DNA of 64,000 nt. It comes from Psammoneis japonica (lineage: Eukaryota). Of the stretch, positions 8,101-59,180 are shown one piece after another. The stretch spans positions 186,001-250,000 of the forward strand of contig QPGO01000077.1 of assembly GCA_008632985.1 (NCBI GenBank), given 5' to 3'. Position 1 is the stretch's first letter; every line of letters begins with the position of its first letter. Under the pieces are notes generated by a model that saw nothing but the letters and a program-made list of their open reading frames with translations, made no database searches and was not told the origin of the DNA. The position numbers and the translations under genes were made by a program.

Positions 8101-8779
8101 GATTTTGCATCAAAAAGGCATGTTTTACTTTGATGCATCTCGCCATGGCATGCATCATTGGGTTGATGCATCTTTCATGGGGGATCTTTTTCTGCCATTG
8201 TTGTGAAGAGGTTGATGCATTGGTTTGGTTTTCTGGGGGGCTTTGGTTTTGACACATGGTGCAAACGGCAACATGCCTCGACTTGTGACTTGATTGCTGC
8301 AGGGTGCGTGCAACATGTGAATGGTCGACAATGTTGCGACGGTGAGTTCTCTTTGTGTTTTGTCAATTCATGTCATTTTCCCATTCACCAAAGATCATTG
8401 TTGTTTTTTGTTACAGCGTGTGAGGTCGATTGATCGTCTCGTACGGTCGATTGTTGCATCTGTGATGTTGGTGTCTTTCTCATGGCGTTTGCACCACCAC
8501 AGTGCATCCGTTTGGGAGCCTCATGCTTCGTCTCACTCTTTGTCCTTTGGCGCATCTATTTGTGCCATTTGTTTGGACTCGTGACAAGCTTGACATGTTT
8601 TTGGAGGTCTTGGTCGGCTCACAATCACAGCATGTCGTTTTTCGGTGACAACAATTTCATCGTGGAACCCCACAAATGTGCGGGGACCCGCAACCAGGAA
8701 ATGTGTGGAGTTGCACGTGCATGCATGGGGACCATTTACGTGGGTTTCATTGACCACTCAGTGGTTGGTGATTGCAGAC

Positions 8780-9465
8780 TTTTTCGTGTCGGTCCGGCAG
8801 TCGGGCAGTCGGGCAGTGGGGGGGTCGGGCAGTCGGGCAGTCGGGCAGTCGGGGGGTCGGGCAGTCGGGCAGTCGGGCAGTCGGGCAGTCGGGTTGTCCG
8901 TCTGAATTTGAAAGTGTGTCCCTTGGATTTTGAAAGGGCATGGGTTGTTCAGTGCAGATGAATTCTTCGGATTCTTGGAATTGTCATTGAGGACATGAGA
9001 GGTTGTGGGGACATCCTAAAAAATCGATAAATTCCCTACGACGGGTGCGTGGCACGGTTTTTCAGGAGAGCTCGAAAGTTCTGAAAAATTGGGATTGCCG
9101 GCGTGGCATGTTCAAAAATGTGTTCAGTTGTGTGCAAAGACAATTTATCGTGAATTCTACATGAAAAAGTCACATTGGGGAAAACACATCAAACAATGAG
9201 TGAGTTTGTGCGATGTGCCATTGTGGCGATAAATTGGAAAAAAAAGAGTGTCCGTGCACCTCGCTGCAGCCCCAAAAATGGCATGAGACATCAAATGTGA
9301 CGGTCATCCGCGTCACCGGTGCGGTGGCCACACCACTCAGCCACCACAATGCCTTCCCCGGCAGTGGGGCCCTGCGCACGTACAGGCAATGCAGCATGCA
9401 ACGGCACACACACACCCACACCCACAAAGAAAGACAAGTGGTCAATGCTCCCCACAGGCCTGGTT
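8780..9465. mobile_element. Dispersed repeat copy 1 (probable DNA-transposon terminus ending ...CAGGCCTGGTT)
   Basis: Colinear homology with 17755-18368; homology ends at the same motif in both copies. Confidence 0.85.
8795..8893 (+). repeat. 8-bp minisatellite (GTCGGGCA)n
   Basis: About 12 tandem units with some GGGGGG variants. Confidence 0.95.
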
Positions 9466-10241
9466 GTTCCAGAGCTGTCTCGCGAACTGCCAGGCGTTTT
9501 TTCGAAATTTTGTCGTAGAAACTGTGCCAGTTTTGCATGTGTGGGCTACGTTTTTCAGCGCCAAATACAAAAATGCACGTGGACCTCTACAGGAGGGTCC
9601 CCGCGCATTTGCGGGGTTCCTCGATGAAATTTCTTGACAGTGCATGCCGTGGGAACAAAACGATGCGATGGAGTCTCGGGGACACTCACGACGTTGGCAT
9701 TTGTCAGACAGCCTTGCCACAGTCCAAAGAAGGCAACACTGTGAGTGTGTTGTGAATGATTGAGTTTTGCACTCGTTTTGACGAAACTTGCACACCCAAC
9801 GAGCCTTTTTTGGTGCGCCTCGATCATGCGTGCAGGCATCTGGTCCTTTTTGACCCTTTCCACCTGCCCTTCAACCACATTGTCATCATTGTCTAAGACG
9901 CTGTATTGTCCACATTATTTTGGGAGATCTTTGTGGTGCAACTGCAACTCTGGGCTTTGCAATGGGTAAAATGTGAAGGTTGAGGCTTGTGTTGGCGGGC
10001 TCATTGCCTCCTCTTGAATGCGCTGATGCCACGAACCGCTGATGGCACTTGGGGGCATAAAAACTGGCAAGGCAACTCAGCTCTACCTTGAAAAGGTGCC
10101 CTGGTGAGTGTGCTGTGACATGTGACCACAATGGATTGTCATTGTGTGCGTTGTAAAACTCACATTTTCATTTTGCCTGTCATTTTCCAGCATGACTGTC
10201 TTGACCGTTAAAGCTTGCAGTGGCATTTCCAGGCCCATGTT

Positions 10242-30130: not shown

Positions 30131-30595
30131 CATGAAAAGCGGTGACAAGATGGCTCAATTTGCACCGTCAAATGACCAAAATTGAAAATGACCGTTCTTT
30201 TCTTTTGTGGTCGTAAAAGAAGTGCTTTCGGCACTCGCACATACAACACTGTGTAAAAAATGCAAACGAACGAGCGCGGTCACCACATTGTGACCTTTGG
30301 TTGTCGAAGATTGAAGATTTATGCCGATAAAATATAAATGACAACCGATCATGAGAGACATTGTGGTCGCACGGCGGAGAATGTCCATTCCTACTTACTG
30401 GAGAGCTAGTAGATAGTCCTGTACAGGATCGTAGAGGGTCATCGGTCATCGACGACCAAAACTTGCATTGCAACCTGCACCTTGTGCATGTGCGAGCAAC
30501 GAAATAACAGGAGAGAAGAGCAATCAACGACGAAAAGCCACTGAAGAGCAATTAAGATATTGTCACAGATGAATAACAAATACCAGATTACCATA

Positions 30596-33500
30596 ATGTG
30601 GTTGAAGCTAGCACTGCTTTCCACTGCCATGCTAGTGGCTCCCGCTACCGGACAAACCCAGGGAATTGCCATTTGGTCTCAGGATCCAGGTAGCTCTCCG
30701 AGGCCTACGAAATACTCCTTGTGGAACGGAACCAACTTTCAACCTGAAGGCAACATGAACACGTCGCAATCCAACTTATGGCGTATCATTCAGGGTGCAT
30801 ATTCTGCAACACGTGACGAAGCCATTGTCATGGGAGTACAAAGTAGTAGCTCTCTCATTAGAGCCCAAGTTTACAGTGGCGGTGTGTGGGATTTTACAAG
30901 TTTTTCGCTCAGCTCGGCAACACACTCGTATTGGTGGAGCTTTGACGTTCGATACGAAACAATAAGTGGCAATGCGTTGATGGTGTGGGCCGTTGCGAGT
31001 TCGAGCACTGTGAAATACCGAACCTACGACGGTTTAAACTGGAGCAACGAAAATACGATACCGTCAGCGGACCAACCCATCACGAGCGGCCAACACAATG
31101 AACTGCACTTGGAAGCGAGCCCCAACTCCAATGAAATCATTCTTGTTGTTGGTGTCAATAACGCTAATGACTACGCAATGGTGTGGAATGGAACCCATTG
31201 GGGCGATGGCTTTGACATGTCCAATGCGGGCACGAGCGAAGTTGGAAATGTCAATGTGGCGTATGAGCAACAAACAGGAAGAGCAATTGTGGTCTTTCGT
31301 GACAAAAACGTTAACAACTTGCTATATGCTGTATGGAATGGCACATCATGGAGTAGAGGTTCTGTGACAGCACCATCAGGTGTTACAACGAGCCCTCGGT
31401 ATGTTGCAATCGGTTCAGATCCAACAAGTAATCGCATTGCGGTCGGTGTGACAAGCTTCAATTCCGACGGTAGTACCAGCGGGCTTGGCAGATATTGGGT
31501 GGGAATTTGGGATGGAAATAGCACTTGGGGTTATATTGAAAACATAATTGCGACAGGGTCCGTTAACTACCATGGTATAGCCGTAGCCTTTGAAGGCACA
31601 ACTGGTCATGCTCTTACCACTTATCAAGATGGCACTTCTACCGTAAAATACGGAACATGGGAAGGTTCCGGATGGACAACAGGAGAAACTGGCCCAAACA
31701 CTGGAAGCAGTCCAAATGCCATGATGCTCTATTCAGATCATCAAACCAACAACATAATGCTGGCTGTCCAAAACAATGGCGAGGACGTAGACTTTCGTCA
31801 ATGGAACGGAACGCATTTTGGAGACGCGAACGTACTTGGAACAACCACAGGTGAAACTAAGAACCAGCCGTTTCTCTTCATGTGGAAGCCAGCTGCCATT
31901 ACTCCGGCACCAAGTGACATTCCAAGCAACTCACCTTCGGTAGTTCCAAGCGACATTCCGAGTACTACACCCTCTTCCAGTCCTTCGGCCGTTCCAAGTG
32001 TCGCGCCATCAAATGCCCCATCGGCTCTACCAAGCGGTGTGCCATCCCTGATATTATCAGCACCAATGTTCACACAACCATCGGCGGTGCCAAGTGTAGC
32101 GCCAAGTGACAAGCCCTCAGCAGTACCATCAGCTGAGCCGAGCAACATGCCAACAGTGACGCCTTCGGTGGCGCCCTCTGCGATCCCGTCAACGACACCA
32201 AGTGCAGCGCCAACTAATGTTCCCTCACGCACTCCTTCGACCCAACCCAGTGAAGCCCCTTCTACCACCCCATCAACGGTGCCTTCTACCACTCCGTCCG
32301 CTGTGCCTAGTGCTGTTCCCAGTGACGTGCCTTCAACAAGACCATCAACAGAGCCAAGTGATGTCCCGTCACTCATCCCTTCGACGGTGCCGTCTACTAC
32401 TCCATCTACAGTCCCGAGTTTGGCTCCCAGTGACGTGCCTTCAACAATGCCATCTACAGAGCCAAGTGACGTCCCGTCTTTCACACCTTCGACGGTGCCC
32501 TCTACTGCTCCATCTACAGTCCCGAGTGCGGCTCCAAGTGACGTGCCTTCAGCAGAGCCATCGTCTGAGCCTAGTGACCTCCCGTCTGTTACCCCTTCCG
32601 CAGTGCCCTCTACTTCACCGTCTACAGTCCCGAGTGCGGCTCCAAGTGACGTGCCTTCAGCAATGCCATCGGCTGAGCCTAGTGAGCTCCCGTCTGCTAC
32701 CCCTTCCGCAGTGCCCTCCACTTCACCGTCTACAATCCCGAGTGCGGCTCCGAGTGCGGCTCCGAGTGCGGCTCCGAGTGAGGTGCCTTCAGCAGTGCCA
32801 TCGGCTGAGCCTAGTGACACCCCGTCTGGTACCCCTTCCGCAGTGCCCTCTACTTCACCGTCTACAGTCCGAGTGCGGCTCCAAGTGACGTGCCTTCAGC
32901 ATGCCATCTGCTGACCCTCTAAAAGTCCGTCTACTGTCCCGAGTGCGGCTCCAAGTGACGTGCCTTCAGCAATGCCATCGGCTGAGCCCAGTGACACCCC
33001 GTCTGTTACCCCTTCCGCAGTGCCCTCTACTAGTCCGTCTACAGTCCCGAGTGCGGCTCCAAGTGACGTGCCTTCAGCAGTGCCATCGGCTGAGCCGAGT
33101 GACACCCCGTCTGTTGCCCCTTCCGCAGGGCCCTCTACTAGTCCGTCTTCAGTCCCTAGTGCGGCTCCTAGTGACGTGCCTTCAGCAATGCCATCGGATG
33201 AGCCTAGTGACACCCCGTCTGTTACCCCTTCCGCAGTGCCCTCTACTTCACCGTCTACAGTCCCGAGTGCGGCTCCAAGTGACGTGCCTTCCGCAATGCC
33301 ATCGTCTCAGCCGAGTGACACCCCGTCTGGTACCCCTTCCGCAGTGCCCTCTACTTCACCGTCTTCAGTCCCGAGTGCGGCTCCAAGTGACGTGCCTTCA
33401 GCAATGCCATCGGCTGAGCCGAGTGACACCCCGTCTGTTACCCCTTCCGCGTGCCCTCTACTTTACCGTCTGCAGTCCCGAGTGCGGCTCCAAGTGACGT

Positions 33501-36500
33501 GCCTTCAGCAATGCCATCGGCCGAGCCTAGTGACACCCCATCTGTTACCCCCTCCGCAGTGCCCTCTACTTCACCGTCTACAGTCCCGAGTGCGGCACCA
33601 AGTGACGTGCCTTCAGCAATGCCATCGGATGAGCCTAGTGATACCCCGTCTGGTACCCCTTCCGCAGTGCCCTCTACTTCACCGTCTACAGTCCCGAGTG
33701 CGGCTCCAAGTGACGTGCCTTCAGCAATGCCATCGGCTGAGCCGAGTGACACTCCGTCTGTAACCCCTTCCGCGGTGCCCTCTACTTTACCGTCTGCAGT
33801 CCCGAGTGCGGCTCCAAGTGACGTGCCTTCAGCAATGCCATCGGCAGAGCCTAGTAACACCCCGTCTGTTACCCCTTCAGCAGTGCCCTCTACTTCTCCG
33901 TCTACAGTCCCGAGCGCGGCTCCAAGTGACGTGCCTTCAGGAGTGCCATCGGCTGACCCCTCTACTAGTCCGTCTACTGTCCCGAGTGCGGCTCCAAGTG
34001 ACGTGCCTTCAGCATTGCCATCTGCTGACCCCTCTAAAAGTCCGTCTACTGTCCCGAGTGCGGCTCCAAGTGACGTGCCTTCAGCAATGCCATCGGCTGA
34101 GCCCAGTGACACCCCGTCTGTTACCCCTTCCGCAGTGCCCTCTACTAGTCCGTCTACAGTCCCGAGTGCGGCTCCAAGTGACGTGCCTTCAGCAGTGCCA
34201 TCGGCTGAGCCGAGTGACACCCCGTCTGTTGCCCCTTCCGCAGTGCCCTCCACCAGCCCGTCTGCAGTCCCGAGTGCGTCTCCAAGTGACGTGCCTTCCG
34301 CAATGCCATCGTCGCAGCCGAGTGACACCCCGTCTGGTACCCCTTCCGCAGTGCCCTCTACTTCACCGTCTTCAGTCCCGAGTGCGGCTCCAAGTGACGT
34401 GCCTTCCGCAGTGCCATCGTCTCAGCCGAGTGACACCCCGTCTGGTACCCCTTCCGCAGTGCCCTCTACTTCACCGTCTTCAGTCCCGAGTGCGGCTCCA
34501 AGTGACGTGCCTTCAGCAATGCCATCGGCTGAGCCGAGTGACACCCCGTCTGTTACCCCTTCCGCGGTGCCCTCTACTTTACCGTCTGCAGTCCCGAGTG
34601 CGGCTCCAAGTGACGTGCCTTCAGCAATGCCATCGGCCGAGCCTAGTGACACCCCATCTGTTACCCCCTCCGCAGTGCCCTCTACTTCACCGTCTACAGT
34701 CCCGAGTGCGGCACCAAGTGACGTGCCTTCAGCAATGCCATCGGATGAGCCTAGTGATACCCCGTCTGGTACCCCTTCCGCAGTGCCCTCTACTTCACCG
34801 TCTACAGTCCCGAGTGCGGCTCCAAGTGACGTGCCTTCAGCAATGCCATCGGATGAGCCGAGTGACACTCCGTCTGTAACCCCTTCCGCGGTGCCCTCTA
34901 CTTTACCGTCTGCAGTCCCGAGTGCGGCTCCAAGTGACGTGCCTTCAGCAATGCCATCGGCAGAGCCTAGTGACACCCCGTCTGTTACCCCTTCAGCAGT
35001 GCCCTCTACTTCTCCGTCTACAGTCCCGAGCGCGGCTCCAAGTGACGTGCCTTCAGGAGTGCCATCGGCTGACCCCTCTACTAGTCCGTCTACTGTCCCG
35101 AGTGCGGCTCCAAGTGACGTGCCTTCAGCAATGCCATCGGCAGAGCCGAGTGACACCCCGTCTGTTACCCCTTCCGCAGTGCCCTCCGCTAGTCCGTCTA
35201 CAGTCCCGAGTGCGGCTCCAAGTGACGTGCCTTCAGCAGTGCCATCGGCTGAGCCGAGTGACACCCCGTCTGTTGCCCCTTCCGCAGTGCCCTCCACCAG
35301 CCCGTCTGTAGTCCCGAGTGCGTCTCCAAGTGACGTGCCTTCAGCAGTGCCATCGGCTGGGCCTAGTGACACCCCGTCTGGTACCCCTTCCGCAGTGCCC
35401 TCTACTTCACCGTCTACAGTCCCGAGTGCGGCTCCAAGTGACGTGCCTTCAGCATTGCCATCTGCTGACCCCTCTACAAGTCCGTCTACTGTCCCGAGTG
35501 CGGCTCCAAGTGACGTGCCTTCAGCAATGCCATCGGCTGAGCCCAGTGACACCCCGTCTGTTACCCCTTCCGCAGTGCCATCTACTAGTCCGTCTACAGT
35601 CCCGAGTGCGGCTCCAAGTTACGTGCCTTCAGCAGTGCCATCGGCTGAGCCGAGTGACACCCCGTCTGTTGCCCCTTCTGCAGGGCCCTCTACTAGTCCG
35701 TCTTCAGTCCCGAGTGCGGTTCCAAGTGACGTGCCTTCAGCAATGCCATCGGATGAGCCTAGTGACACCCCGTCTGTTACCCCTTCCGCAGTGCCCTCTA
35801 CTTCACCGTCTACAGTCCCGAGTGCGGCTCCAAGTGACGTGCCTTCAGCAATGCCATCGTCTCAGCCGAGTGACACCCCGTCTGCTACCCCTTCCGCAGT
35901 GCCCTCTACTTCTCCGTCTACAGTCCCGAGTGCGGCTCCAAGTGACGTGCCTTCAGCTTTGCCATCGTCTCAGCCGAGTGACACCCCGTCTGTTGCCCCT
36001 TCCGCAGTGCCCTCTACTTTTCCGTCTACAGTCCCGAGTGCGGCTCCAAGTGACGTGCCTTCAGCAGTGCCATCGGCTGAGCCCAGTGACACGCCGTCTG
36101 TTACCCCTTCCTCAGTGCCCTCTGCTAGTCCGTCTACAGTCCCGAGTGCGGCTCCAAGTGACGTGCCTTCAGCAGTGCCATCGGATGAGCCGAGTGACAC
36201 CCCGTCTGTTGCCCCTTCCGCAGTGCCCTCCACCAGCCCGTCTGCAGTCCCGAGTGCTGCTCCAAGTGACGTGCCTTCAGCAGTGCCATCGGCTGAGCCT
36301 AGTGACACCCCGTCTGCTACCCCTTCCGCAGTGCCCTCTACTAGTCCGTCTGCAGTCCCGAGTGCGGCTCCAAGTGACGTGCCTTCAGCAATGCCATCGG
36401 CTGAGCCGAGTGACACCCCGTCTGTTACCCCTTCCGCGGCGCCCTCTACTAGTCCGTCTACAGTCCCGAGTGCGGCTCCAAGTGACGTGCCTTCAGCAGT

Positions 36501-39500
36501 GCCATCGGATGAGCCGAGTGACACCCCATCTGTTACCCCTTCCGCAGTGCCCTCCACCAGCCCGTCTGCAGTCCCGAGTGCTGCTCCAAGTGACGTGCCT
36601 TCAGCAGTGCCATCGGCTGAGCCTAGTGACACCCCGTCTGCTACCCCTTCCGCAGTGCCCTCTACTAGTCCGTCTGCAGTCCCGAGTGCGGCTCCAAGTG
36701 ACGTGCCTTCAGCAATGCCATCGGCTGAGCCGAGTGGCACCCCGTCTGCTACCCCTTCCGCAGTGCCCTCTACTTCTCCGTCTACATACCCGAGTGCGGC
36801 TCCAAGTGACGTGCCTTCAGCAGTGCCATCGGCTGTGCCAAGTGTTGTTCCATCCACGACTCCTTCTACTGCGCCCTCTGCAACACCATCTGTTGTCCCA
36901 AGTTCATCACCCAGTAATGTCCCGTCGACTGGTCCATCCGATCAGCCAAGTGACGTGCCTTCCCTTCAACCGTCTTCCGTGCCTTCCACAGGCCCATCAG
37001 CTTTCCCAAGTTTGGCACCCAGCAATGTCCCGTCGACTAGTCCATCCGCGCAGCCAAGTGATGTGCCTTCTCTTCAACCGTCTTCGGTGCCTTCGACAAG
37101 CCCATCAGCGGTCCCGAGTTCGGCTCCCAGTAATGTCCCGTCAACTAGCCCCTCCGCTCGGCCAAGTGATGTGCCTTCTCTGCAACCGTCTGCAGTTCCA
37201 TCGACAAGTCCATCCACAGTCCCAAGTGCGACTCCCAGCGACGTGCCCTCCACAACACCATCTGCCGAGCCAAGTGATGTCCCGTCTCTCACCCCTTCCA
37301 CGGTGCCCTCTACTGCTCCATCGACAGTCCCGAGTGCGGCTCCCAGTGAAGTACCCTCAACAACACCATCAGCCAAGCCAAGTGAGGTCCCCTCAACAGC
37401 GCCCTCTACCACTCCATCTACAGTCCCCAGTGCGGCTCCCAGTGACGTGCCATCAAAAACACCATCAGCCGAGCCAAGTGATGTCCCGTCTCTCACCCCT
37501 TCCACGGTGCCCTCTGCTACTCCATCTACAGTCCCGAGTGCGGCTCCCAGTGACGTGCCCTCAACAACACCATCGGCCGAGCCAAGTGATGTCCCGTCTC
37601 TCACTCCTTCGACGGTGCCCTCTACTACTCCATCTGCAGTCCCGAGTGCGGTTCCCACTGACGTACCCTCAACATCGCCATCAGCCGAGCCAAGCGATGT
37701 GCCGTCTCTCACCCCTTCGATGGTGCCCTCTACAACTCCCTCTGCAATGCCGAGTGCTGCTCCTAGTGACGCACCTTCAAAAATACCATCCGCAGAGCCA
37801 AGTGATGCCCCATCTCTCACCCCTTCGACGGTGCCCTCTACTATTCCGTCTGCACTGCCGAGTACAACCCCCAGCAGTGAGCCCTCATCAACACCATCTT
37901 CGGAACCAAGCGATGTACCTTCTGTCACCCCATCAACCGTTCCGTCCGCAGCACCGTCATCAGCGCCCAGTACAACTCCCAGTGGTGTCCCATCGACAAC
38001 ACCGTCATCTCAACCAAGTGCAGCTCCAAGCAGCGTACCATCAGCAACACCTTCGGCCCAACCGAGTGGGGCTCCAAGCAGTGTGCCCTCTGTAGCACCT
38101 TCAGCAGAACCGAGTGATGCTCCGTCCGCCACTCCATCAAATGAGCCATCTAATGCACCCTCGGCAATTCCAAGTGGGCTCCCAGTGATGCACCTTCCAA
38201 AAGTCCATCTTCTGAACCTAGCGACATCCCATCTTTGAAACCTTCGACCGCACCCTCAGCTGCTCCTTCTGCAGTCCCTAGCATGGCTCCAAGTGACGCA
38301 CCATCGACGACCCCTTCGACCCGACCTAGTCATGTCCCCTCCTTGACGCCTTCGACAGTTCCCTCATTAAGCCCGTCTGCAGTTCCGAGTGCAGCTCCCA
38401 GTGATCTGCCATCCACAGCTCCGTCTTCTGAGCCCAGCAAATTGCCGTCCTCTTCACCTTCAAATGCTCCATCGGCTGCACCCTCGACAGTCCCTAGTAC
38501 GGCACCCAGTGATGTGCCCACTGGCGGTCCGTCAATGATGCCATCAAACAGTCCAAGCGCTACGCCGAGTGATGCTCCATCGATGGTTCCCAGTGATCCG
38601 CCATCCCAAGCTCCTTCACCACGGCCTTCAACGACGCCGTCTAGTATTCCATCAACGGTACCAAGCACGTTTCCATCCATTCAACCTTCTATTGTGCCTT
38701 CAAGTGTTCCAACAGGAGGTCCAACTCAGATTCCCTCCAGTACACCATCAGATAGTCCAAGTTCTGTTCCATCTGTCATGCCGACCATCGCACCGAGCAG
38801 AGAGCCAAGCTCACTCCCAACCTCATCCTCTAGTATTTCTCCATCCCAAGCACCATCCCAAGCTCCCACTCTAGCTCCTTCTCCGCATCCAAGCAGTTTA
38901 CCGTCAAGCTCGCCGACAGCGGAACCAAATGCTTCAGTGATATTCCTAATCACAACGAATGGAACTGAAAATGAAATAATCAAAGTCGGAGAAACAATAA
39001 ACTCAACCTACACCATCACCAACAATGGCAATGTGGCTCTTTCCAACATTAACCTCACCGACAACCGAGGCGTAACTCCTACTCTCATTTTTGGAGACAC
39101 TGACAATGATGGAGAGATTGACGTGGATGAAACGTGGATTTTCGAAGCAATCGAGGTCGCCCAGATTGGACCGCAGACCATCACTGGGGTCGTGTCTGCA
39201 GAGATTGATGGACAAAACTTCACTTCGCAATATTCAACCTCGTACGTGGGAGGGGCTCCATCTCTAAGCGTCAATCTGTTGATGAATGATGAGGAAACTC
39301 CAAAAGTGAGAGTTGGTGATCCAATCAACACAACCTACACCGTGACTAACACGGGGAACGTACCTTTATCCAACATTGATATCGCGGACAACCGTGGCGT
39401 GACACCAACGTTGCTTTCTGGGGATACAAACAGTAATGGAGAGCTTGACGAGGGCGAAACGTGGATATTCCAAGTTATCGAGGTTGCTCAATCTGGATCT

Positions 39501-41474
39501 CAAAGCATTACAGGAGCAGTCACGGCCGAGTTAAACGGGGAGGTCTTCGAGACACAGTATTCGACGTTCTACGTTGGCGCCTCTCCGTTGCTCAAGCTCA
39601 CCCTCTTGACAAATGGTTTGAATGAAGCGGGGCCTATTCCTACTGGCACCGACATGGTTTGGATTTTCCTCGTGGACAATGATGGAGATGTTCCGCTTTC
39701 CAATATTACGGTCTTTGACGACAAAGGAGTTACGCCGAATCGAATCCAAGGCGACGTAAACAAAAATGATTTACTCGATCTTGACGAACAGTGGGTATTT
39801 GTACAACCCTTCAAAGCTCAACAGGGCCCGTTCACTAATACGGGATTTGCATCGGGTCTTTTTGGCGATGTGGTGGCCAACGACGAGGACTCGAGTTCCT
39901 ACCAAGGAGTGGGAACCGAGTCACCGACAGTTGCACCCACGACTGCAACTCCAACAGGTTCGCCCTCGCGGCTGCCAACCACGGGTGAGCCAACCCCCCT
40001 TCCTACGATAGACCCCGATCCGTCCATTGCTCTTCAAGCCTCAGCAAACGGCTTTGATATCCTGGTTGTTAGGGAAGGCGAGACCATTACATGGACTTAT
40101 CGAGTCGCCAACACTGGCAATGTTGCCCTTTCCAATGTTGTTGTTACCGGAGGCGCGGAATCCTCCAATCTTGTACTTGGATCTGGCGATTTTAATGGCA
40201 ATAATGAGCTTGATCCTGGCGAAACTTGGGAGTATGACGTAGTTGGAGTTGCCGAAATCGGTTTATTCAGCGTCGTTGGAAGAGTATCGGCAGAGTACAA
40301 TGGTGAATCCCTTTCCGCCGTCGACTCGAATCTATACTACGGAGTATCGCCAGAACCAGAACTTGAAATTCAAGAGGAAACCGACACTGTTCTCAATCTA
40401 ACAACATACACAGTCACAAACAATGGAGACACTCCACTGTCGGATTTACAATTCTCCCCCAAGCAAGGCGTGGAACCGCCGCTCTTGATATCGGGAGACC
40501 TGAATTCCAACGGTGAACTTGATGAGGGTGAAAGTTGGGTATTCGCGGCTGATGGCGTTGCCAATGATGACGAAGAGCCGGTTCTTGTGACTGCAACAAA
40601 TGGAAGCGGCGCGGAGATTACGGCAGTTCCTCCTTCCTACATATCCGCCGATCCTCCGCCGCCACAAAATGCAGCAGTGGAAATTACCGCTATCATTAAC
40701 GGCGGGGATGGCTTGATTGTACCTGTTGGAGAAGATCTGCTATTTGAGTATTATGTCTTCAATTCGGGTGATGCCCCTTTGAGAAACATTGCTGTTACCG
40801 AGATGAATGAAGCCAATATCAATCCCGACTTGAGAACTCCAGACTTTGACAAGAGCAGCAGCGAGACTTTGGAACCAGGAGCAACATTGATATTTCAAGC
40901 CACTGGAATTGCTCAAGAGGGTCTGCAAGAAACTATGGGCGTTGTCACGGCAACTTACAATGACAATACAGTGTCCGATCAAGATCTTAGTTCGTATTTG
41001 GGTGTAGTTGATGGGGAAAATCAAGGCTGTCGACCAAGCGTATGGAGAAAATCCACACAGAACTGGCAACGCTACCGGCCAAGCAGCAAGTTTGACAAGG
41101 TGTTTGGAGTCGAGGCCTTTCCTCGCAAGAGCCTCAACTTTGTGCTCACGCAAACTGGATCAGGCAAGGAAAAAGCCCTAGGCCGACAGGCTGTCGCCGC
41201 GCTTTTGAATGCAGCCAACAACCGGGTTTCGTATGGACTGTCGACCAACCATGTCATTCGTTTGGTCAAGCAAGCGTACGAAACCCGCAACCACGAAGAG
41301 GCAAAAGTCTTGTTGCAGCGGCTGAACAAGCGAACATGTCCATCCCGTCTTGTTGGCAGTGCAAATCCTCCACCCACACGGCGTCCAACTCCCCGTAGAA
41401 CCAGGCGACCGCGAAATAACAACCGTTCCAAAGGAGGCAAGGGCGGCAGAAGAGGCGGCGGCTTGCAATGGTAA
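30596..41474 (+). CDS. Giant secreted adhesin/mucin-like protein (~3,600 aa after correcting about 5 single-base deletions): signal peptide, W-rich propeller-like domain, PSxx stalk, ~5 DUF11/DUF7507-like Ig repeats, C-terminal AVAALLN domain, basic tail
   Basis: 'MWLKLALLSTAMLVAPATG'; ORFs 30560-32914, 32960-, 33451-38238 and 38235-41474 join through 1-bp deletions in repeat units (~32870, ~32900, ~32915, ~33450, ~38180); repeats 'YTVTNTGNVPLSNI...GDTNSNGELDEGETW'. Confidence 0.85.
31900..38920 (+). repeat. Coding tandem array: 12-bp PSxx units, 108-bp (36-aa) core unit, ~1,116-bp higher-order duplication
   Basis: Unit PSAAPSDVPSAMPSAEPSDTPSVTPSAVPSTSPSTV; the diagnostic TCTACTTTACCG occurs at 33457/34573 and 33781/34897. 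Confidence 0.95.
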
Positions 41475-44200: not shown

Positions 44201-46427
44201 AAGGGAGATGTTTGCACTGGCACTCGTCAGTTGGATGACCAAGCCAATGCTGAAGGCCCACACCACAAATGTTTGAAAGCCCTCTGGCTTGCATCCACCA
44301 TGATTTGTGTGGGCTGTTGAGTCAGCTTTGCAGCGTGGTTGACAACAAAGCCTTTCTGGCAGCAGGAAGGTGTGCACTGTGCTTGAAGAATGAGTGCAAA
44401 CAAAAGTGAAACAAATCACGAAAAGTGGAAATTGTGAGATCAATTTTTGCACTTCAATTTTGGGATTCTCTCAAGGAGCTCTCAATGGCCCAAAGCTTCT
44501 GTGTTGCTCCTGCAGAGCAAAGGCCTTTCAGAGAATCTAATCATGACAACAGATTGTCTGGATGTGATCAACATTGACATCTCATGTGTCAACATTGTCT
44601 GTTGATGGCACTTGCAATTTCAGACATCTGATCAGCTCTGCATGATAAATCTGACCTTTGTGTGCATCCATGATTGTTGCACAATTGACACACACAACAA
44701 TGTGCAATTGTGAGTGTGCATGATTTCATCTGCTCAACAAGAACACATGCTGCAGGTGCCCTCTTCTGGCAGAATCATCTCACGAGGAGGTCTCCACACT
44801 GCTGCAACTCTGCGCACACTTTGCAACAGTTTTTCTTTGAAGCAGGACAAAAGTGCACAGACAACAAGCTCTAAGCTGCTTGCCCCATTTGCAATGGGGC
44901 CCCATGGCTTGTGGCAGAACAGCTCCTTGGTGTCTTTTGCCAGCCTCAAAGTGCTCTTGCTGCTCTCTTGACAAGAAACAAAGCCGAGAACACTCCAACT
45001 TTGTGAAAGGCACATGACTTGCAATGAGAAAACATGTTTTCTGAATGAAAGAGCACCTGTCGTGGGCAACATTGAGCAACCACAGTTTTTGCTCTCTCTC
45101 AACAAAAAATGAACAATGTTGGCAGCAGCAAAAATCCAAGAAATGAAAGCTGGTGCATGTGCTGCTCAGAGTGTGAACAAAAGCCTGCCACTTGTGATTG
45201 TCAAAGCAATGTGCACTCTGCACTGTGCACCAGTGTGTTGTGTGCTTCCTGCCAACAACAGCCCAGTGGTCAGCAGCACTCCCCTGTCATCAGCACACCA
45301 ACTTCTGCATTTTCTTGCTTGCATCTCTCCTCTCGCCCAACACATGATGTTCAAAAAGCAGAAATGTTGAGGAGCCAAGGCACTGAAGAGTCATGCACAA
45401 GATGGGTGATGGGATTTGGTGGGGAGCAGAGAGCTGAAAAGGTGGAGGCAGAAAAGGGAGGGCCCAAAGTGCAGACACAATGGACAAGAAGGGGAGAAAA
45501 AGTTTGGGTGGTGACGAAGGAGAGGTGTGCGCACCACATTTGGTGGTGTGGCTGGAGAGGAGGGCAAGGCCGAGATTGAGGCTGAGAAGCTGAGATTCCC
45601 AGGCTTGGGGCGGGAGTGGACAAATGGCAAGAAGAGCTGAGGCGGTCTGGAGACAGCCGTTTCCAGGCCACAAGAGGAAAGTTGAAGGTGAGCGATGAGC
45701 GAGCGAGAGCGTGATGTGCAAGCTCCTCTCTGTCCTCTGTCCGTCCTGGGTTCTCGCACTACGCACGGTAGTCTCAAGTCTACGTCTACGAGTACAAGAC
45801 TTCCCGCGCAAATCATCAAGAACATTTTTATCTCTTCTTCCATAACAATTATATATTTTTTATCTCATTCGGCTTCGCATATTGTTTTTATCCCGAATGA
45901 CTCGTTGAATCCTGCACGTGTGGTCATTTTTTACATGCGTTGTAAAGAATATGAAATTATTAGTGTTTGAAGGATTTTGATAATAACTTTGAAATTAGCA
46001 ATTTTGAAAGAGCTTTCAAAATAAATTCATCTATTTAGAAATATCATTTACTTAAATTTTTATCCTTTATCTTCATTCACAAATAATGTCAGTCCCCCGA
46101 GCTCTGCGTAGAGTCGTGTACGACTTGACAATGCAGCCGTTGAAAGATACCCACCAATTTTTCTGGCCTCAACGTTGCTGTCATCAACACAGAAGCATTC
46201 GTGTGTGTTTGTTGCAGTGGCGCAAGTCACTTTTGCAAGGATAGGCCTACAGCGTCGAATCGCACTTGTATTGCCAGCGTTGAGAACATTTATTACTGCA
46301 TTCCAAGAGCTGCCATCATCTTTAGTTCCTATCGAGAGAACGTTTGAGACTTACGGTATTATTTCTTGTCCGTAAGCAATTTCAAGTCAGCTTCACTCAA
46401 GACTCTGCGGAAACAACACAGAAAATA

Positions 46428-51684: not shown

Positions 51685-52375
51685 TTTAAAATAATATGCT
51701 TTTGTTTCAAGGAATCGGGCAAAACGTCCCGGGTATTTTTGAGGTACCTCAACACACCGTTCTCTGCGTTCTTTCTGTTCTTTTTGTTATCTGAAGTCAG
51801 CCATATAATTCGAATTTGTTGAGTGCTTGTGCTTTCAATCGAGAAGAAGCAAATAAAAAGCTAAACCTTATAGAGGATATATGCAAACAAACAACAGCAA
51901 CAGCAGTGTTCCACAAGTCACAGCGATACTGTACTTGAAGTGAAAGGCGGGGTGAAGCGCTTTCTTCTCACCGCCAAAACCAGCCGCGAAAAAGCAAAAT
52001 GTTGGAGCAGTATGACCAATCCACGTAAACGATATACAGTGTTAAGGCTTATATGCATTAATAATGTATACGCTTTTATATAATATGTAAATAAGCTGTT
52101 TTTCAACGGAAGGCACTTTCACATGGCGTACTGAAAGTACGTACGAAGGACCACGTGCGTCAGACATTTACGTCAGTGCAGAAAAAGTGATACTGAAGTG
52201 ATGACTTAGAAGTGGTCCGTGCGTGGTCAGACCAACCACCCGACGACGACGACACGCGACTCCTCCTCTACGCTCTAGCTAGGACCAACAATGGTCGGTT
52301 ATCGTCCCTATTGCCTGACTAGAGTCCATAGATACACCATAATGCAAACTCTCTATAATCTAATTTAGTTTCAGC

Positions 52376-53464
52376 TTATTCCAATGACACTTCGCCTTCG
52401 TCATCGTCATGAAGCGCCCCCTTTGATCGCAAAAGTAGCTCCAGCTTTAGCGTCAATTCATCAATTTTCCCCTCGAGTCGAGCAACATGTTGCGCAACTT
52501 GTGTGGAGGGAGGAGAGTCATATTTCTCCTCTTGTACCCGCTTTCCTTCTTGCTTTTCGTTGTGAACATTAAACATGGACTCACACAGCACGGCAATTGT
52601 GAGATTCGCCAAGACCAAGGATGCACTCATCACAAAGGCAAGAAAGGGCATCCATGCCCACGGAAACGCTTCCATGACTTCCTGTGTCGTTTGTGCCCAG
52701 TTGTCCAGAGTCATGATTCGAAATAAAGTGAACAACGTTTCATCCATTCGAGAAAAGCAATCCTCACTGGTGACGCCTTGTTCATGCAAGTCCTTGTACA
52801 GAGTTGCAAAGAGGACTGCAAAAATGTAAAAGAAAATGCTCAACAAAAACGTGACGCTAAATAGCTTGGGGACAGCTCGAAGGAGGGCGTTGGAAACACT
52901 CTTGAGGGGCTGAATTCTGGTTGCCAGTCTGAGCGTTCGAATCAATCGAAACGCACGAAGCACCAAGAGAAAGGGCATGAACCACGAAAAGGCAACAATC
53001 ACCGTGTCGTAGAGCAGCCAACCGTCACTGAAAAAATTAACCTTGTGATGGAGTGCTTGAAGAATCACTTCTCCCGAGAAAACAATCAAAAATGTGTAAT
53101 CGAGCACGTGAAACAGCCTCTTTACGTTTTCGTTTGCAAAATCAAATGTTCCAATTCCCAGTGCAATGCTGTTGAGCATGATCAAGACAATGATGGCACG
53201 CTTAAATCGCGCATCCTCCACGATCCGACCACTCCACCGACTGTTCCATTCGACAAAGGTTTGTGGCGGTGGTGCACCCAACACTTCCACGCCGTCAATC
53301 GAATCGGCAAACATGGTTGGTTGTGTGCTGCACGTCGAAAGCTTGTCGTCTTCGGCCAAGACATGAGCCTGGTCTGTTGTGAATGTTTTTGGGACATCTT
53401 CGGGTGTTGTGTCAATGTTGGATGTATTGCATGTCTCATTTTGAGTAAACCATGATGAACTCAT
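52376..53464 (-). CDS. EukCatA-like channel paralogue 2, filter TLDNW
   Basis: S4 'RAFRLIRTLRLATR', 'CFSRMD..LFRIMTLDNW', 'NLTIAVLC'; start codon taken as the Met at 53464. Confidence 0.88.
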   Translation of the reverse strand: MSSSWFTQNETCNTSNIDTTPEDVPKTFTTDQAHVLAEDDKLSTCSTQPTMFADSIDGVEVLGAPPPQTFVEWNSRWSGRIVEDARFKRAIIVLIMLNSIALGIGTFDFANENVKRLFHVLDYTFLIVFSGEVILQALHHKVNFFSDGWLLYDTVIVAFSWFMPFLLVLRAFRLIRTLRLATRIQPLKSVSNALLRAVPKLFSVTFLLSIFFYIFAVLFATLYKDLHEQGVTSEDCFSRMDETLFTLFRIMTLDNWAQTTQEVMEAFPWAWMPFLAFVMSASLVLANLTIAVLCESMFNVHNEKQEGKRVQEEKYDSPPSTQVAQHVARLEGKIDELTLKLELLLRSKGALHDDDEGEVSLE

Positions 53465-53589
53465 GGAGTGGCGTACTTTCCAAAAGTGCGGTGCGCAGCA
53501 CTCGTCTACATACGGACAAACAGCACTAGACTCTACGCACCAAACACAACAAGATTTCACTTCATTACGACAACAGCACGGGAAGTCTA

Positions 53590-54530
53590 TCATGTCGGGT
53601 GCATCGACGTCACTGCGCTTCTTGCGTGTAAAAAATGCATCAATCCACTAATGTCACGCATGCGAATTGGATGGGATGCAGGATCTTGCAAATCTGGTGA
53701 AAAAATCGTCCCCCCGTGCTTCACCGTGTTAAAAACCCCGTGCCAATCCTCCACAATGAATGAAAATCCAACTTTTCGTCAAAATCTGTTGTCGCGTGCT
53801 CACTTCAGTGCTTCATCAATGCGATCGACCGAGAAAACACAAAATGCACCCCAAAAAAAGTGAAAAACAACAGTCCCACCGCGGCCAAAACCTCTACGTG
53901 ATTTCAGTGCCAAGTTGTACGTGCCAAAAACTCTTCGTCACCAATGGCTCAACCAGCTCCCAAAACAACTCGATCATTGTCATTTGACATTGACATCTCA
54001 TTTCTTATCATATCAGTTGTTGTCTCGGTGCATCATAACCTCCCAGTCTGCTGTCGTTGTTGTGTGCGTCCATTGCCGATGTCGCGGCGTCGTTGCCGTG
54101 ATGTTTGTGTGTGAAGTGAATTCAAGTGAACATCTCTACGAATTTTGTAGTGCATTTTTACGTACGTATATTTTGTGTAGATCAGGTATGCGCACCGAAT
54201 TTTTGAAAGTACGCCACTCCATTGTTCACAGCAGTCAATGTGATGAATGAGGAGAGCGAGGGGTTTTATAGAAAAAGCTGAAGAATGAAAAAAAAAAAAA
54301 AAGTGCAGAAAAAAAGTGTGCGGCAGGATTTTTGGAATTTTGAGCGGGCGTGCTGGAAAATTCGGAGTTCTCATGAACATTTAATAATAAGAAGATTGAT
54401 AAACTTGTATAATATAAATAGTTAAGTCATTATTAGAAATCTAAGGCAACGTTTATTTTTACTATCTGAAAGTATTTTATGAATATCTCCACACATGTAT
54501 TATTTATTTAGATGTCGTTTATGTGACAGG
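53590..54530. mobile_element. Probable non-autonomous element remnant between channel paralogues 2 and 3
   Basis: TA-poor but CpG-rich left part and very AT-rich right part; no TIR or TSD confirmed. Confidence 0.35.
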
Positions 54531-54809
54531 TCAGGCCGTGGTACGTGGACTCGTGACTGCTTCATGCACCACGTGGTATAAAAATTGTGTAAGTAGAATC
54601 ATAGTAGATCAGCGCCAGTAGTTTCGACAGTCAAAGAATGTTCACGGTTTCCTGCGACAACAGGACACCTTCAATCTGATCGCATCGATCGATCGCAAGA
54701 CGTGTCGCTGCTTTGTTGTGTGTGTTGCTATTGAGGCGTTTGCTATTGATGAATAGACTGTACTGAAACATTAAAGACAGTGCCCTTTAGAGTTTTATCA
54801 GCAAGCAAG

Positions 54810-56351
54810 ATGGATCGAACATCGGTCCTGGGGAAAATACGGGCATTTCGGAACAAAGAGGGAAGCAACAGCTCGTATCAAAATTTCGAACGTTCCGGTA
54901 CTGAAACACTCGCCAGCAACAACAATAGTGTCGTTCTTCCTCAAGATGCACTCGATCAAAACAACACTCGCGAATCGCTGTTGTCAGTTCAATCAACGTC
55001 GACCGCTCGTGATATGCTTATCAACCTGAATAAAGCTCGCAAGTTCGCGGGAAAGGTTGTAAACTCGGAGCGAGTGCAGTGGTTTATTGTGATTCTCATC
55101 GCCATCAATGGTATTATGCTTGGAATCGGGACATTTGACTTTGTTTCGGAGAATGAGAACGTGAAGAATGCCTTCAATATTGTGGATAAAATCTTTCTCG
55201 TCATTTTCACAATTGAGCTTGGGTTACAGTTTCTCTATCATGGGTGGAGGCTCTTGCTCGATGGGTGGCTTGTGTTTGACCTTGTGGTCATTACCATGTC
55301 TTGGGCCTTTGAATCGATGCAGATTGTTCGAGCCTTTCGAATCTTTAGGGCATTGAGGCTCATCACACGTATCAAGGTTATGAAGCACTTGGTTCTGGCC
55401 ATATTTGGTGTTATGCCTCGTATTATGGCCATTATATTCTTGCTCTGTTTGATCATGTACATCTTCACAGTCATGTTTACGGTTCTCTTTGGAGATTTGT
55501 ACACGGATTACTTCTCTGAATGGGATTACTTTGGACGATTAGACTTGACCTTTTTCACTCTCTTTCAACTCATGGTGAGTCTCTCTGACAAACTCAGTTG
55601 TGCTTCTTTCATGGTCCTATGTTGATGCTGATTCGTGCTTTCTCTGCTCGTACTCTTTTGTTGTAGACTCTTGACGACTGGGCATCCATTGCTAGGCAAA
55701 CGATCGACGCATACAGCTATGCTTGGTTGCCTATCCTCGCATACCTTATCATCACTGGCTTTATTGTGGTGAACCTCATTATCGCTGTGATTTGCGACGC
55801 GATTGCTGACTTGAATGATGATCAGATTGCCAAGATCCACGGGACGTACGAGTCAGAGAGACAGTTGCAGCTTGACGACCCACCACCGGCAAAGACCCGG
55901 CGGACCTCAAGACAGGGAGGGTCGGTGATGGACGAGACGAATAGTGATGCTCCGGTGCCAGAAACCAGCAGCGACGCTGGAAGAGACAGGCGGCGGTCCT
56001 CAAGGCTCAGTTTCATTGGAATTCCCATGGAGTCGAGAAGTGACGCGGCCGAGAACGGCAGCGATACGGGACGAAGAATGTCTCATTCAAAGAAGCAACG
56101 ACGCAGGAGTTCAAATCAAAGTACGAATAGCGCGGCTGAGGCACTCCTCCATAACGATGAAGAAAACGAGGTATAACTTTGCTGACAACCTGGTGACGAA
56201 CGCCAGTGTCTTGAGCGAAAGGAGCATTGACGGTCGAATCGATTCACTTTCGGAACAGGTCGAGGCACTTGCGCAGATTCAGGAAGAAACGCAAGTAGCA
56301 ATGAATCAGCTAACGTCATTTCTTGAGCAGCGACGAAAAAAGGACAGATAA
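54810..56351 (+). CDS. EukCatA-like channel paralogue 3, filter TLDDW; intron 55575-55666; terminal coiled coil in a shifted frame after ~56170
   Basis: S4 'RAFRIFRALRLITR'; splicing GTGAGT..TAG joins FQLM|TLDDW; 'IDSLSEQVEAL' lies in another frame. Confidence 0.88.
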
Positions 56352-56732
56352 AGAGGTGCGGCAGGGGTTGGGACTGGTTGCAGTGGCGACTGGTCCCACG
56401 TCGCTTCATAAACAGTAAACTACATCATATCGAGTAAATAGAATTTTCTTGAACATGCTTTTAACCAGTTTGATTTCCTCGAAGGATCTAAACTTGTGAT
56501 TTGTGCTCTACTACCCTGTTGCGACTCAACTGTTTTTCGTCCCTCGACCGAGATGCATCATACACGTGTTTTTATTTATCACTGGAGCAACAACTATTCA
56601 CTTTTGACAACTAATCCTACTTTTTACATTTAATTCCACTACTAAATCGACAAGCTGCGCCGTATTTTCAATGCATGGCGCCCTCGGCTAGTCGAGAGTC
56701 CCACAGACTCTGCAACAAACATTCATCTGCTT

Positions 56733-59180
56733 TTAGAGCAGAGCCACACCAACAGACGCGGCAATCAGCGCGACAACCAAAGACACAATGCTCTTGCCGG
56801 CATCGGATGACTCCTCGCCTCCAGGACTGTTGGCCCGGGGAATGACATTTGGCGCCGCCGTGGCCACGGTCGGCAAGACACTGGGTGCCTCCGAAGGTTC
56901 ATCAGAGGGCATTCCGCTAGGGCGGCGCTCGGAATACCAGAAGCCTCCATCGTGGGGGATTCAGATGGGCTTGACGAAGGCTTTGTACTCACAGATGGAG
57001 TGGCCGATGGACGAAGACTGGGCTGCCAAGACGCAGAAGGAGCCCCAGTGGGTGGTAGAGTAGGACCTACCGACGGCGTTGTGGATGGGCTCACCGACGG
57101 CACCTTCGTAGGATAGTTTGTAGGCGGCAAAGACGGAGTGCCAGTTGGGGAATGCGATGGTAAGGTGGTCGGATTCGCCGTTGGCTCCTTTGAAGGGGAT
57201 TTCGTTGGATTCATCGTGGGCGAACTGCTCGGCATGTCAGTTGGGGACTGGGACGGCTCATTCGATGGGGCGGCAGTTGGGGTAACGGAAGGAGTGCCCG
57301 AGGGCTTCGTCGTGGGGCTTTCCGACGGACTTGACGACGGCTCCGGGCTTACAGATGGTTCTGCAGATGGACTCAGACTAGGCTGGGTTGACACAGAGGG
57401 GGGCGCACTCGGATGAAGAGTCGGACCAACCGAAGGGACAGCGCTGGGGGCACTCGACGGAGACTCCGAAGGAGAGTTGGATGGCATCGAAGAGGGAGTG
57501 CTACTCGGGGAGTGCGAAGGTGTGGCACTGGGGCTTTCAGACGGTTCCTTTGAAGGCGAGGCCGACGGGGCCAAAGAGGGCGATGTAGTCGGTGACGCCG
57601 ATGGCGCATCAGAAGGTGTAGCGCTGGGGCTCTCAGACGGTTCCTTTGAAGGTGAGGCCGACGGGGATGAAGACGGGGCGGCGCTGGGACTCTTGGACGG
57701 TGCTTTCGAAGGCGAAGCAGATGGAGCCATGGAGGGTGAAGCAGATGGGGACCGGGATGGGGCAGCGGAGGGCTGTGCGGATGTACGCGGGGGCGTTCCA
57801 AAGATACGAACAAGTCCGGTAGACTCTCCATCGGCGTTGAAAGAGTTAACAGAGCCAGCAGCTAGACGACCGCCTTCGCCTGTCATGGACACACCCAATA
57901 GACCGTATCCCAAGCGAGGAGTACCGTCCTCGCCGTAAATGTCAGCTCCAGCGGGAACCCATTCACCGTCAAGATAGTCAAACATCTGCACTATCCCACT
58001 TCGAGTGTTGCGACGATAGGAGGAAGCAGCAATACGGTTTCCGTCTTCAGAGATGGCCACCGTGCGGCCATACTTGTCGTCGAGAGTATTACCTCCAAGC
58101 TCTTGGCCTTTGAGGACCCAGCCGTTAGACGTGATTTCGTACACGCTGACCTTCCCGAATTGTGGGCCAAACATGTTACTGCCTGGAGAACCAACAATTA
58201 CGGTCGAGCCGTCGGCACTCATATCCATTGAAAAGCCAAGACTGTCACCTCGAGAGTCGCCTACAATGTCACGACCAATCTGTACCCACATGTTGTTGAC
58301 GGAGATATAGTCAAAGACCTGCACCATGCCATGATCGTCTTCGTAGTTGGGTGCCGACACGGCGATACGGTTTCCATTTGACGAGACGGCCGTCTTCCAA
58401 CCAAAGCGATTGTGGTAATCAAGGCCGTCCAAGGTTCCCATGGGCGCCCAAACGCCATTGAACTCCTTGAAAATCTCAACACGACCGGTAAAGTCATTGT
58501 GCCGATCCGAGCTTACAATGACACGACTCCCGTCCGGTGTCAAGGTAACGTCCGCTCCATCGGCTTCCATATAGAGCGACACAATGGGAACTGGATGAAA
58601 TGTAGGCGTAACATCGTAGATATCCACTCCGTTTGGATTGATACGGCGAATCGCGATACGGGACCCGTCCTCCGAAAGCGAGATGTGATCACCAATGCGC
58701 TCGTGGCGGTTACCACTGACAAACCAAGTAAGGTTCCAGCCACTGCTAACTTCTTCGTAGATAAAGACACCACCACAGTCCTCCTTCAAGTGACTCTGGT
58801 TGGCATAGGGAGTGCTCCAATCGTGCTCAACGGCTCCAACGGCCAAGCGGGATCCACCAGCCGAAGAGAGTCTGACAGAGGTTCCAAACTTCGTTTGGGG
58901 AGAAAAGACCGCCGCCGGAGTACCGTAGATCTCTCCAAGGTCGACAAAACCATCGGGGGTATCAAGACGACGAGCACCGGCATCAAGCTTGGCAGATCGC
59001 TGTAAAGGAACAGACACGACAGCGAGACCAAGTCGTGAGAACGTCATCACGGTATCAGTTCTGATAGACCAGAAACAGTGAGAGACGGGAACGTTCGACA
59101 CTTACCAAGTTGATACCAACAACGGGAGCAACCAACGCCATAACGGTGGCCAGAGTAAAGGCAAGAACAAGACGAGGCAT
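56733..59180 (-). CDS. Cell-surface FG-GAP/integrin-alpha-like beta-propeller protein with a PS stalk and GPI-like C-terminal signal; intron 59105-59000; 1-bp error ~56922
   Basis: Signal peptide 'MPRLVLAFTLATVMALVAPVVG'; repeats 'FG..V.LS.DG.R.AV.AP...G.V.VF'; corrected end 'GGEESSDAGKSIVSLVVALIAASVGVALL*'. Confidence 0.85.

Follow-up and report, generated by a model that had tools for sequence, protein, structure and literature searches.

The window that we analyzed is a 64-kb stretch of contig C79 from the 91-Mb Psammoneis japonica assembly; a second contig, C375, carries the other allele of the locus described here. Nearly TA-free blocks, in which the observed-to-expected (o/e) ratio of the TA dinucleotide is 0.01-0.2, alternate in the window with genes at an o/e of about 0.5. 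Three of these genes encode single-domain Ion_trans channels, which we call P1, P2, and P3. P2 (52376-53464, minus strand) is a voltage-gated, EukCatA-like channel gene of 362 amino acids, counted from the orthologous ATG (Pfam Ion_trans, 4.7e-34). Its paralogues P1 (50476-51684, minus strand; TA content normal) and P3 (54810-56351, plus strand; alleles identical) served as controls, and the named database matches of P1 are diatom proteins. P1 and P2 are separated by a TA-rich interval (51685-52375; 52 TA, one transversion between alleles) that contains the 3′ region of P2 and the putative P1 promoter. A second TA-rich interval, presumably a shared promoter, runs from the original start of P2 to the divergent start of P3 (54223-54809) and shows no allelic TA difference; in 54225-54809, which holds 41 TA, one non-TA substitution separates the alleles. 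Contigs from run X2 lie on P1 and P3 and none on 52029-53171, although such contigs show presence and not absence. The 92-nt intron of P3 (55574-55665) is skipped in X2, which behaves like RNA in skipping two GT-AG introns. One-base indels at 56162, 56176, and 56919, which break the reading frames of P3 and of an FG-GAP gene, occur in neither X1 (a short-read run), X2, nor C375 and are probable assembly errors.

P2 is poor in TA. Its coding region (52376-53461) contains 18 TA in 1,086 nt (o/e 0.23), compared to 36 in 1,209 nt (o/e 0.44) for P1, in line with the counts of the initial annotation. Taken alone, the contrast between the two paralogues is weak (p=0.04). With 10 other ORFs of the window pooled as a reference (TA o/e 0.50), P2 has 18 TA where 38 are expected (Poisson p=2e-4) and a normal number of CG (55 observed, 59 expected, p=0.32). 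The adjacent segment 53600-53990, also described initially as TA-poor and CG-rich, has 5 TA in 391 nt (TA o/e 0.18; CG o/e 1.13). The TA-erased block nearest to P2 ends near 45600, about 7 kb away, with normal genes between. Elsewhere in the window, TA is normal in a very long Pro/Ser/Thr tandem-repeat gene (30569-41474), and thus repetition inside a gene does not attract the mutational process.

A genome search placed P2 at a single locus, since only C79 and C375 matched at >90%; at the DNA level it has no paralogue except for one 51-nt match at 76%. The orthologue P0001 is 62% identical, with similar N and C termini (MSSWLF at its N terminus, MSSSWF in P2). The first 43 codons of the 405-amino acid P2 ORF are transposon DNA, the start that corresponds to that of the orthologue being the ATG at 53464. 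Diatom EukCatA proteins are described as single-domain voltage-gated channels with a single Ion_trans domain, an arginine-rich S4, a TLD/TLE-type filter, and a coiled-coil-like C terminus (PMC6509283). P2 resembles them, as it has one PF00520 stretch with a single six-helix domain, S4 arginines (R170, R173, and R176) that are invariant in a 10-row alignment, the filter TLDNWA, and a C-terminal stretch that, judged by eye, is coiled-coil-like. P2 differs from the channels described there in its membership of a divergent subfamily, with the filter TLDNWA, and in its decay. In a comparison with 126 homologues, 48 of 130 conserved columns differ in P2 and 14 of 131 in P1. Since many of the P2 departures are common to P0001, or matched in kind by it, this divergence appears to be largely older than the mutator discussed below. 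Two more Ion_trans paralogues, 33-36% identical to P2, lie on contig C183 (7394-8100 and 22041-22714), which has sequence in common with contig C217.

When we searched the genome with 52200-54300, about 23 of the 74 matches were near-full copies (86-97%) of one element, the only repeat found in this interval. It is a miniature inverted-repeat transposable element (MITE; 53465-54220, 756 bp), a non-autonomous DNA transposon with terminal inverted repeats that begin GGAGTGGCGTACTTT and a duplicated AT, mostly at an A-AT-T site as judged from the flanks of 20 loci. The left AT duplication (53463-53464) supplies the A and T of the P2 start codon, and the right one (54221-54222) adjoins the original 5′ leader of P2. 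On the minus strand the empty site reads GTGAACA ATG AGT. As the MITE sits within the ATG that corresponds to the start of P0001, its insertion cut P2 off from the 587 bp it had in common with divergent P3. ISL2EU elements of the PHIS DNA transposons are reported to duplicate a 2-bp AT target (PMC4482050). The MITE shares this duplication, which in most copies is preceded by A and followed by T, and differs from the ISL2EU rule in having C before or G after at some sites. Among 44 exact matches to the terminal repeat, which form pairs about 760 bp apart, with several unpaired and none longer, we found no autonomous partner or transposase; an autonomous ISL2EU element would encode a DDE transposase together with a YqaJ ORF.

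Several other repeats lie near copies of this element. Two tandem MITE copies on contig C63 (L050:4248-5766) have one AT in common; TA is heavily mutated there, with no CG change in the copy that was scored. Members of a small family of repeats, about 350 bp long (8652-8747 and 9464-9631 in the window, and loci L036, L053, L055, and L057), are found near several MITE copies. Immediately to the right of the MITE, C375 alone carries a 1.8-kb insertion (window 54248-54252; L032:4153-5956), an element that has terminal inverted repeats and has apparently duplicated 3 bp. This element has at least four near-full copies at 94-97%, and the C375 insertion retains 101 TA.

The two alleles provide an internal clock. 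C375 aligns to 50099-66687 of C79. Short-read contigs from run X1 have a depth of about 50 over P2, as for a single locus, with bubbles of 28 and 34 nearby. Among the X1 variants listed (40 of 144), all 15 in 52807-53283 carry the C375 letter, and X1, which may be the assembly's own sample, showed 22 contig differences compared to 27 in C375. The depth, the bubbles, and the C375 letters at the listed sites argue that C375 is the homologue and not a duplicate. In the flanks (51770-52375 and 54225-59047), one substitution separates the alleles in 5,429 bp; there is none in 51770-52375, and none of the 182 TA in 54225-59047 differ. By contrast, P2 differs by 22 events: 10 doubles, in which one allele has TG and the other CA, eight single TA changes, three CpG transitions, and one other change. 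Of ancestral TA sites, 18 of 33 differ in P2, where the other 15 are intact on both alleles, versus none of 229 in the flanks (p=4e-19); the TA loss is thus derived and recent. The view that P2 had lost TA without losing CpG holds for the CG count; nevertheless, three of 56 CpG sites differ between the alleles. Differences of the TA to TG or CA type span 52504-54152 and are densest at the junction of P2 and the MITE.

Each double requires two separate hits on one ancestral TA or CG. Comparison with P0001 favored TA at codons Y34, I124, and L150, was neutral at several, and favored CG at none, and the ten doubles appear to be ancestral TAs hit independently on each allele. The MITE behaves similarly. 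With the ancestral state taken from eight pristine copies, 21 of its 42 TA are intact in both alleles, five have the same outcome, eight have opposite outcomes, and eight changed in one allele only, the mixture predicted if mutation occurred independently after the alleles split. The mutation rate of TA was about 3,000-fold above background in P2 (at least about 540-fold) and 5,100-fold in the left half of the MITE (at least about 900-fold), although these values are rough, as they rest on one background event in partly coding DNA. At the split, P2 had at least 33 TA, a density like that of P1. The P1 alleles differ by 33 substitutions, of which 4 are TA-type, 27 synonymous, and 6 non-synonymous. 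An excess of TA to TG or CA changes relative to the orthologue, a check raised by the initial annotation, was suggestive only: restoring TA in P2 matched P0001 at 11 of 112 sites versus 4 of 112 for CG, with P1 controls of 3-8 versus 7-10. The nearly identical tract of about 7 kb was probably made by mitotic gene conversion or inbreeding; mitotic recombination between homologues is reported in diatoms (10.1101/2020.11.08.373134). In a transposable element (TE) block that extends past the window edge (63801-66687), C375 and C79 differ by 32 changes, 18 TA-type and 10 CG-type, mostly lost on C375.

To describe the mutation spectrum, we used 14 mutated MITE copies. A>G changes affected 370 of 1,169 TA sites (0.317), compared to 12 of 1,888 AA, 20 of 1,555 CA, and 18 of 1,241 GA sites (0.006-0.015). 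Within TA, the rate was about twofold higher at TAC and TAT (0.36-0.37) than at TAA and TAG (0.19-0.20). C>T changes occurred at 70 of 1,290 CG sites versus at most 0.004 elsewhere, including 6 of 1,558 CA sites. The outcomes in P2 were 14 TG and 14 CA, with no strand bias. Among TA survivors in the erased block at 1-23000, 69 of 140 are YTAR and seven RTAY. Four of the 14 mutated copies had no CG change despite having lost 15-33 TA, indicating that TA loss comes first and is independent of CpG decay. The proposal that the two are separable is therefore upheld insofar as TA loss runs ahead, but CpG sites decay as well, at roughly one sixth the rate of TA.

This spectrum probably reflects A-to-I deamination of DNA with a T-A-Y preference, and a modification of T that is read as C may fit it equally. 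A search for deaminases gave nine PF00383 matches, of which one was translated and proved TadA-like; TadA-like deaminases are, to our knowledge, near-universal, and membership in this widespread family is not diagnostic. A search for TET/JBP proteins found nothing, with the controls also silent. Polymerase-eta-type errors, which prefer WA motifs, are disfavored, since AA was the least mutated context. We also rejected RNA-level editing, as there is no strand bias and the element has DNA-transposon ends; MITEs have no RNA intermediate.

The damage is unevenly distributed. Over the first 400 nt of P2, TA hits affect 18 of 26 site-alleles, versus 10 of 40 farther on (p=8e-4), a gradient to which identical changes on both alleles are invisible and which is compatible both with distance from the element and with the center of a silent interval. 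In the half of the MITE that faces P2, 13 of 23 TA changed on the window allele and 15 of 23 on C375; the corresponding counts for the far half are 5 of 19 and 1 of 19. We extended this comparison to 22 sequences of the family (20 fetched regions plus both alleles, with one of the two tandem C63 copies excluded). At most one of the 42 TA changed in eight of them, compared to 15-38 in the other 14. We scored a mutated sequence as asymmetric when one flank had at most 7 TA per 500 bp and the other at least 15; in all eight such sequences (seven loci), the more mutated half lies toward the TA-poor flank. The remaining six mutated copies have poor flanks on both sides and hits throughout, and over 26 MITE halves (tandem locus excluded) the Spearman coefficient was -0.67. 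From the eight untouched copies and the consistent polarity toward the TA-poor flank, we infer that the mutator targets a one-sided silent domain and not the repeat itself. Three of the eight pristine copies have old TA-erased blocks no more than about 500 bp away, and a pure position rule fits them only if they are younger.

A second mutated host gene was found beside another copy of the MITE. Pfam searches of 71 of 85 ORFs in MITE flanks gave three matches, of which a DnaJ domain alone was credible, so that a clear host domain was found in 1 of 71. This single-copy DnaJ-domain ORF is a remnant on contig C254 (L045:2546-4619), between a 990-bp repeat and a MITE, with a TA o/e of 0.08 and a CG o/e of 0.73. 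It reads MCHPD, with CpG largely kept; J domains usually have Y where it shows C. Of three flanks searched against the genome, two were largely other repeats. On C217, a 3-kb stretch (L053:884-3875) with 1-4 TA and 72-76 CG per kb is open in several frames and had no Pfam match; 500 bp of TA-rich sequence lie between it and the MITE.

Both alleles of P2 carry damage at conserved positions. C236 (TGC, 52757-52759) in both alleles replaces a tyrosine found in P0001 and in 98% of 126 homologues, none of which has cysteine; the Y to C change noted initially in EDCFSR is thus real and derived. The accompanying Y to H change in ALHH fared less well: H139, which aligns with the sibling tyrosine, is also histidine in the orthologue (ALHYR) and is therefore old, but the next residue, H140, is a candidate, as both H140 and H227 are tyrosine in P0001. 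On the window allele, A220 replaces a threonine present in all 126 homologues, and on C375, P150 replaces a leucine present in 99%. The S4 arginine R173 (CGA, 52946-52948), conserved in 100% of homologues, is TGA on C375 through a CpG transition that is not among the 40 of 144 X1 variants listed. P2 has thus stayed open on the window allele, as was first described, but not on C375. Y152, R249, and L283 are non-TA departures at conserved sites in both alleles.

We saw no purifying selection on these hits. Allele-specific TA hits were non-synonymous in 19 of 28 cases, compared to a neutral expectation of 65% (p=0.84), whereas the allelic differences in P1 (27 synonymous, 6 non-synonymous) bear the mark of purifying selection. 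The window allele may retain residual function: its reading frame is uninterrupted, and synonymous changes make up 7 of its 15 hits (not significant, p=0.42). The earlier suggestion of accelerated paralogue evolution is not borne out: with no selection, a stop on C375, and much divergence old enough to be common with the orthologue, the locus looks like decay. P2 is apparently undergoing pseudogenization and not a demonstrated adaptive acceleration.

We consider it probable that MITE insertion created a silent domain in which a TpA mutator is turning P2 into a pseudogene. The MITE entered the start codon and would have severed the gene from its promoter, ending transcription. The insertion is on both alleles inside the nearly identical tract, having probably been carried there by gene conversion or inbreeding. 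Together with the half of the MITE that faces it, the P2 body would then form silent chromatin, a domain of about 1.7 kb bounded by the presumably active promoters of P1 and P3. Here the mutator worked on the chromosome itself, hitting either strand and the two alleles independently and turning TA into TG or CA. Slower CpG deamination followed, and the outcome would be loss of the gene. The enzyme, if a T-A-Y-preferring deaminase as the spectrum suggests, was probably recruited by the silent chromatin. TEs of the diatom Phaeodactylum are reported to carry DNMT5-dependent CG methylation with H3K9me2/3 and H3K27me3 (PMC9998398). Such methylation would explain the slower CG to TG or CA changes and offers a candidate recruiting state, but cannot itself produce TA to TG or CA changes at P2. 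By analogy, chromatin bearing 5mC, H3K9me2/3, and H3K27me3 is a likely recruiting state.

The initial annotation proposed that mutation spread from a neighboring element. In one such reading, the MITE itself would nucleate mutation through small RNA or homology recognition, much as in repeat-induced point mutation (RIP), and leak outward, with the P3 promoter blocking one side and P2 as collateral, transcribed or not. An adjacent element does exist: the MITE is the sole repeat in 52200-54300, hits in P2 fade with distance from it, and the closest erased block is about 7 kb off beyond normal genes. However, mutation does not radiate symmetrically, as the TA in 54225-59047 do not differ between alleles; the mutated half of the MITE faces the poor flank while its far half is nearly clean (15/23 versus 1/19 on C375); and 8 of 22 near-identical copies are essentially untouched. 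We regard nucleation by the MITE as unlikely.

Still less probable, in our judgment, is that P2 was already silent or dying and that the MITE inserted into a domain headed for mutation anyway. Such a history could account for the non-TA departures shared by both alleles (Y152, R249, and L283) and for the two further elements that target this spot or sit close, such as the 1.8-kb insertion on C375. At the allele split, however, P2 still had its 33 or more TA, and the MITE hits arose independently on each allele, indicating that most of the mutation followed insertion; the window frame, in addition, has no stop or frameshift. That the differences are assembly or sequencing artifacts, or codon-usage drift of a divergent paralogue, is largely refuted and scarcely credible, despite the nearby indel errors and the divergence of the P2 subfamily (48/130 departures versus 14 for P1), since the differences affect only a single dinucleotide within a single 1.7-kb span, all 15 X1 variants listed in 52807-53283 agree with C375, and 14 element copies show the same spectrum.

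A broader rule can be proposed tentatively, and we think it could well be wrong: all DNA lying farther than about 1 kb from an active promoter would lose its TpA, even where it encodes host genes. Destruction would be the default, keyed to silence and not to foreignness or repetition, striking both alleles thousands-fold above background before CpG methylation leaves a trace, and shared by diatoms and rhizarians. One small insertion in a start codon would then suffice for the irreversible erasure of a gene. More generally, the locus offers a built-in clock for a mutation process that has hardly been described. Because otherwise identical alleles have opposite TA outcomes and the MITE lacks an RNA intermediate, the process is recent, fast, and chromosomal, and it strikes each homologue separately. 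Single-copy host genes are within its reach, and neighboring active genes limit its extent, so that the targeting rule, repeat or silence, is testable at one PCR-sized locus. In such genomes, recently inactivated genes can be recognized by low TpA at a normal CpG content, and open frames are poor evidence of function, since TAA and TAG stops are erased too.

The closest known system is in the rhizarian alga Bigelowiella natans, where two integrated viral regions are reported to mutate about 1,000-fold faster than the rest, at TpA only (Mettrop et al., bioRxiv 10.64898/2026.01.13.699255). Those regions, 25-186 kb and viral, were measured in mutation-accumulation lines, and an ADAT2-like A-deaminase was proposed. 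As there, a single-copy and presumably silent region is targeted at the P2 locus, the effect is regional, and transitions of TpA to TpG or CpA fall almost only at TpA and on both strands (TA at 0.317 versus 0.006-0.015; equal numbers of TG and CA). Our rates agree with the roughly 1,000-fold regional value, roughly, given the one background event. In contrast, the target here is not of viral origin but a diatom-type host channel gene and half of a DNA MITE, spanning 1.7 kb, with CpG decay following. In the Bigelowiella account we found no case in which a TE triggers the erosion of a named host gene or of an allele pair, and its supplements list TpA-poor genes that may include host cases.

RIP in ascomycetes likewise hypermutates TE DNA through transitions at specific dinucleotides and leaks into neighboring single-copy genes (PMC3105345), and at P2, too, an adjacent single-copy gene is hit. 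The direction is opposite: RIP makes TpA from CpA or TpG by C:G to T:A transitions, whereas TpA is destroyed here. RIP also needs repeated sequence, whereas at our loci the damage is one-sided, many identical MITE copies are untouched (8/22, possibly because they are younger), and P2 has no DNA-level paralogue beyond the 51-nt match. In Leptosphaeria, leakage is proposed to diversify effectors that selection retains (PMC3105345), in contrast to the hits in P2, on which we saw no selection. A literature search on diatom TpA depletion, TEs, and RIP, with subscription papers mostly outside its reach, found among the papers listed no report of a TpA-erasing process in diatoms. The P2 locus adds a pair of alleles with opposite outcomes inside a homozygous tract, a DNA transposon in a start codon as the probable trigger, a polarity that extends across the element family, and the lack of selection on the hits.
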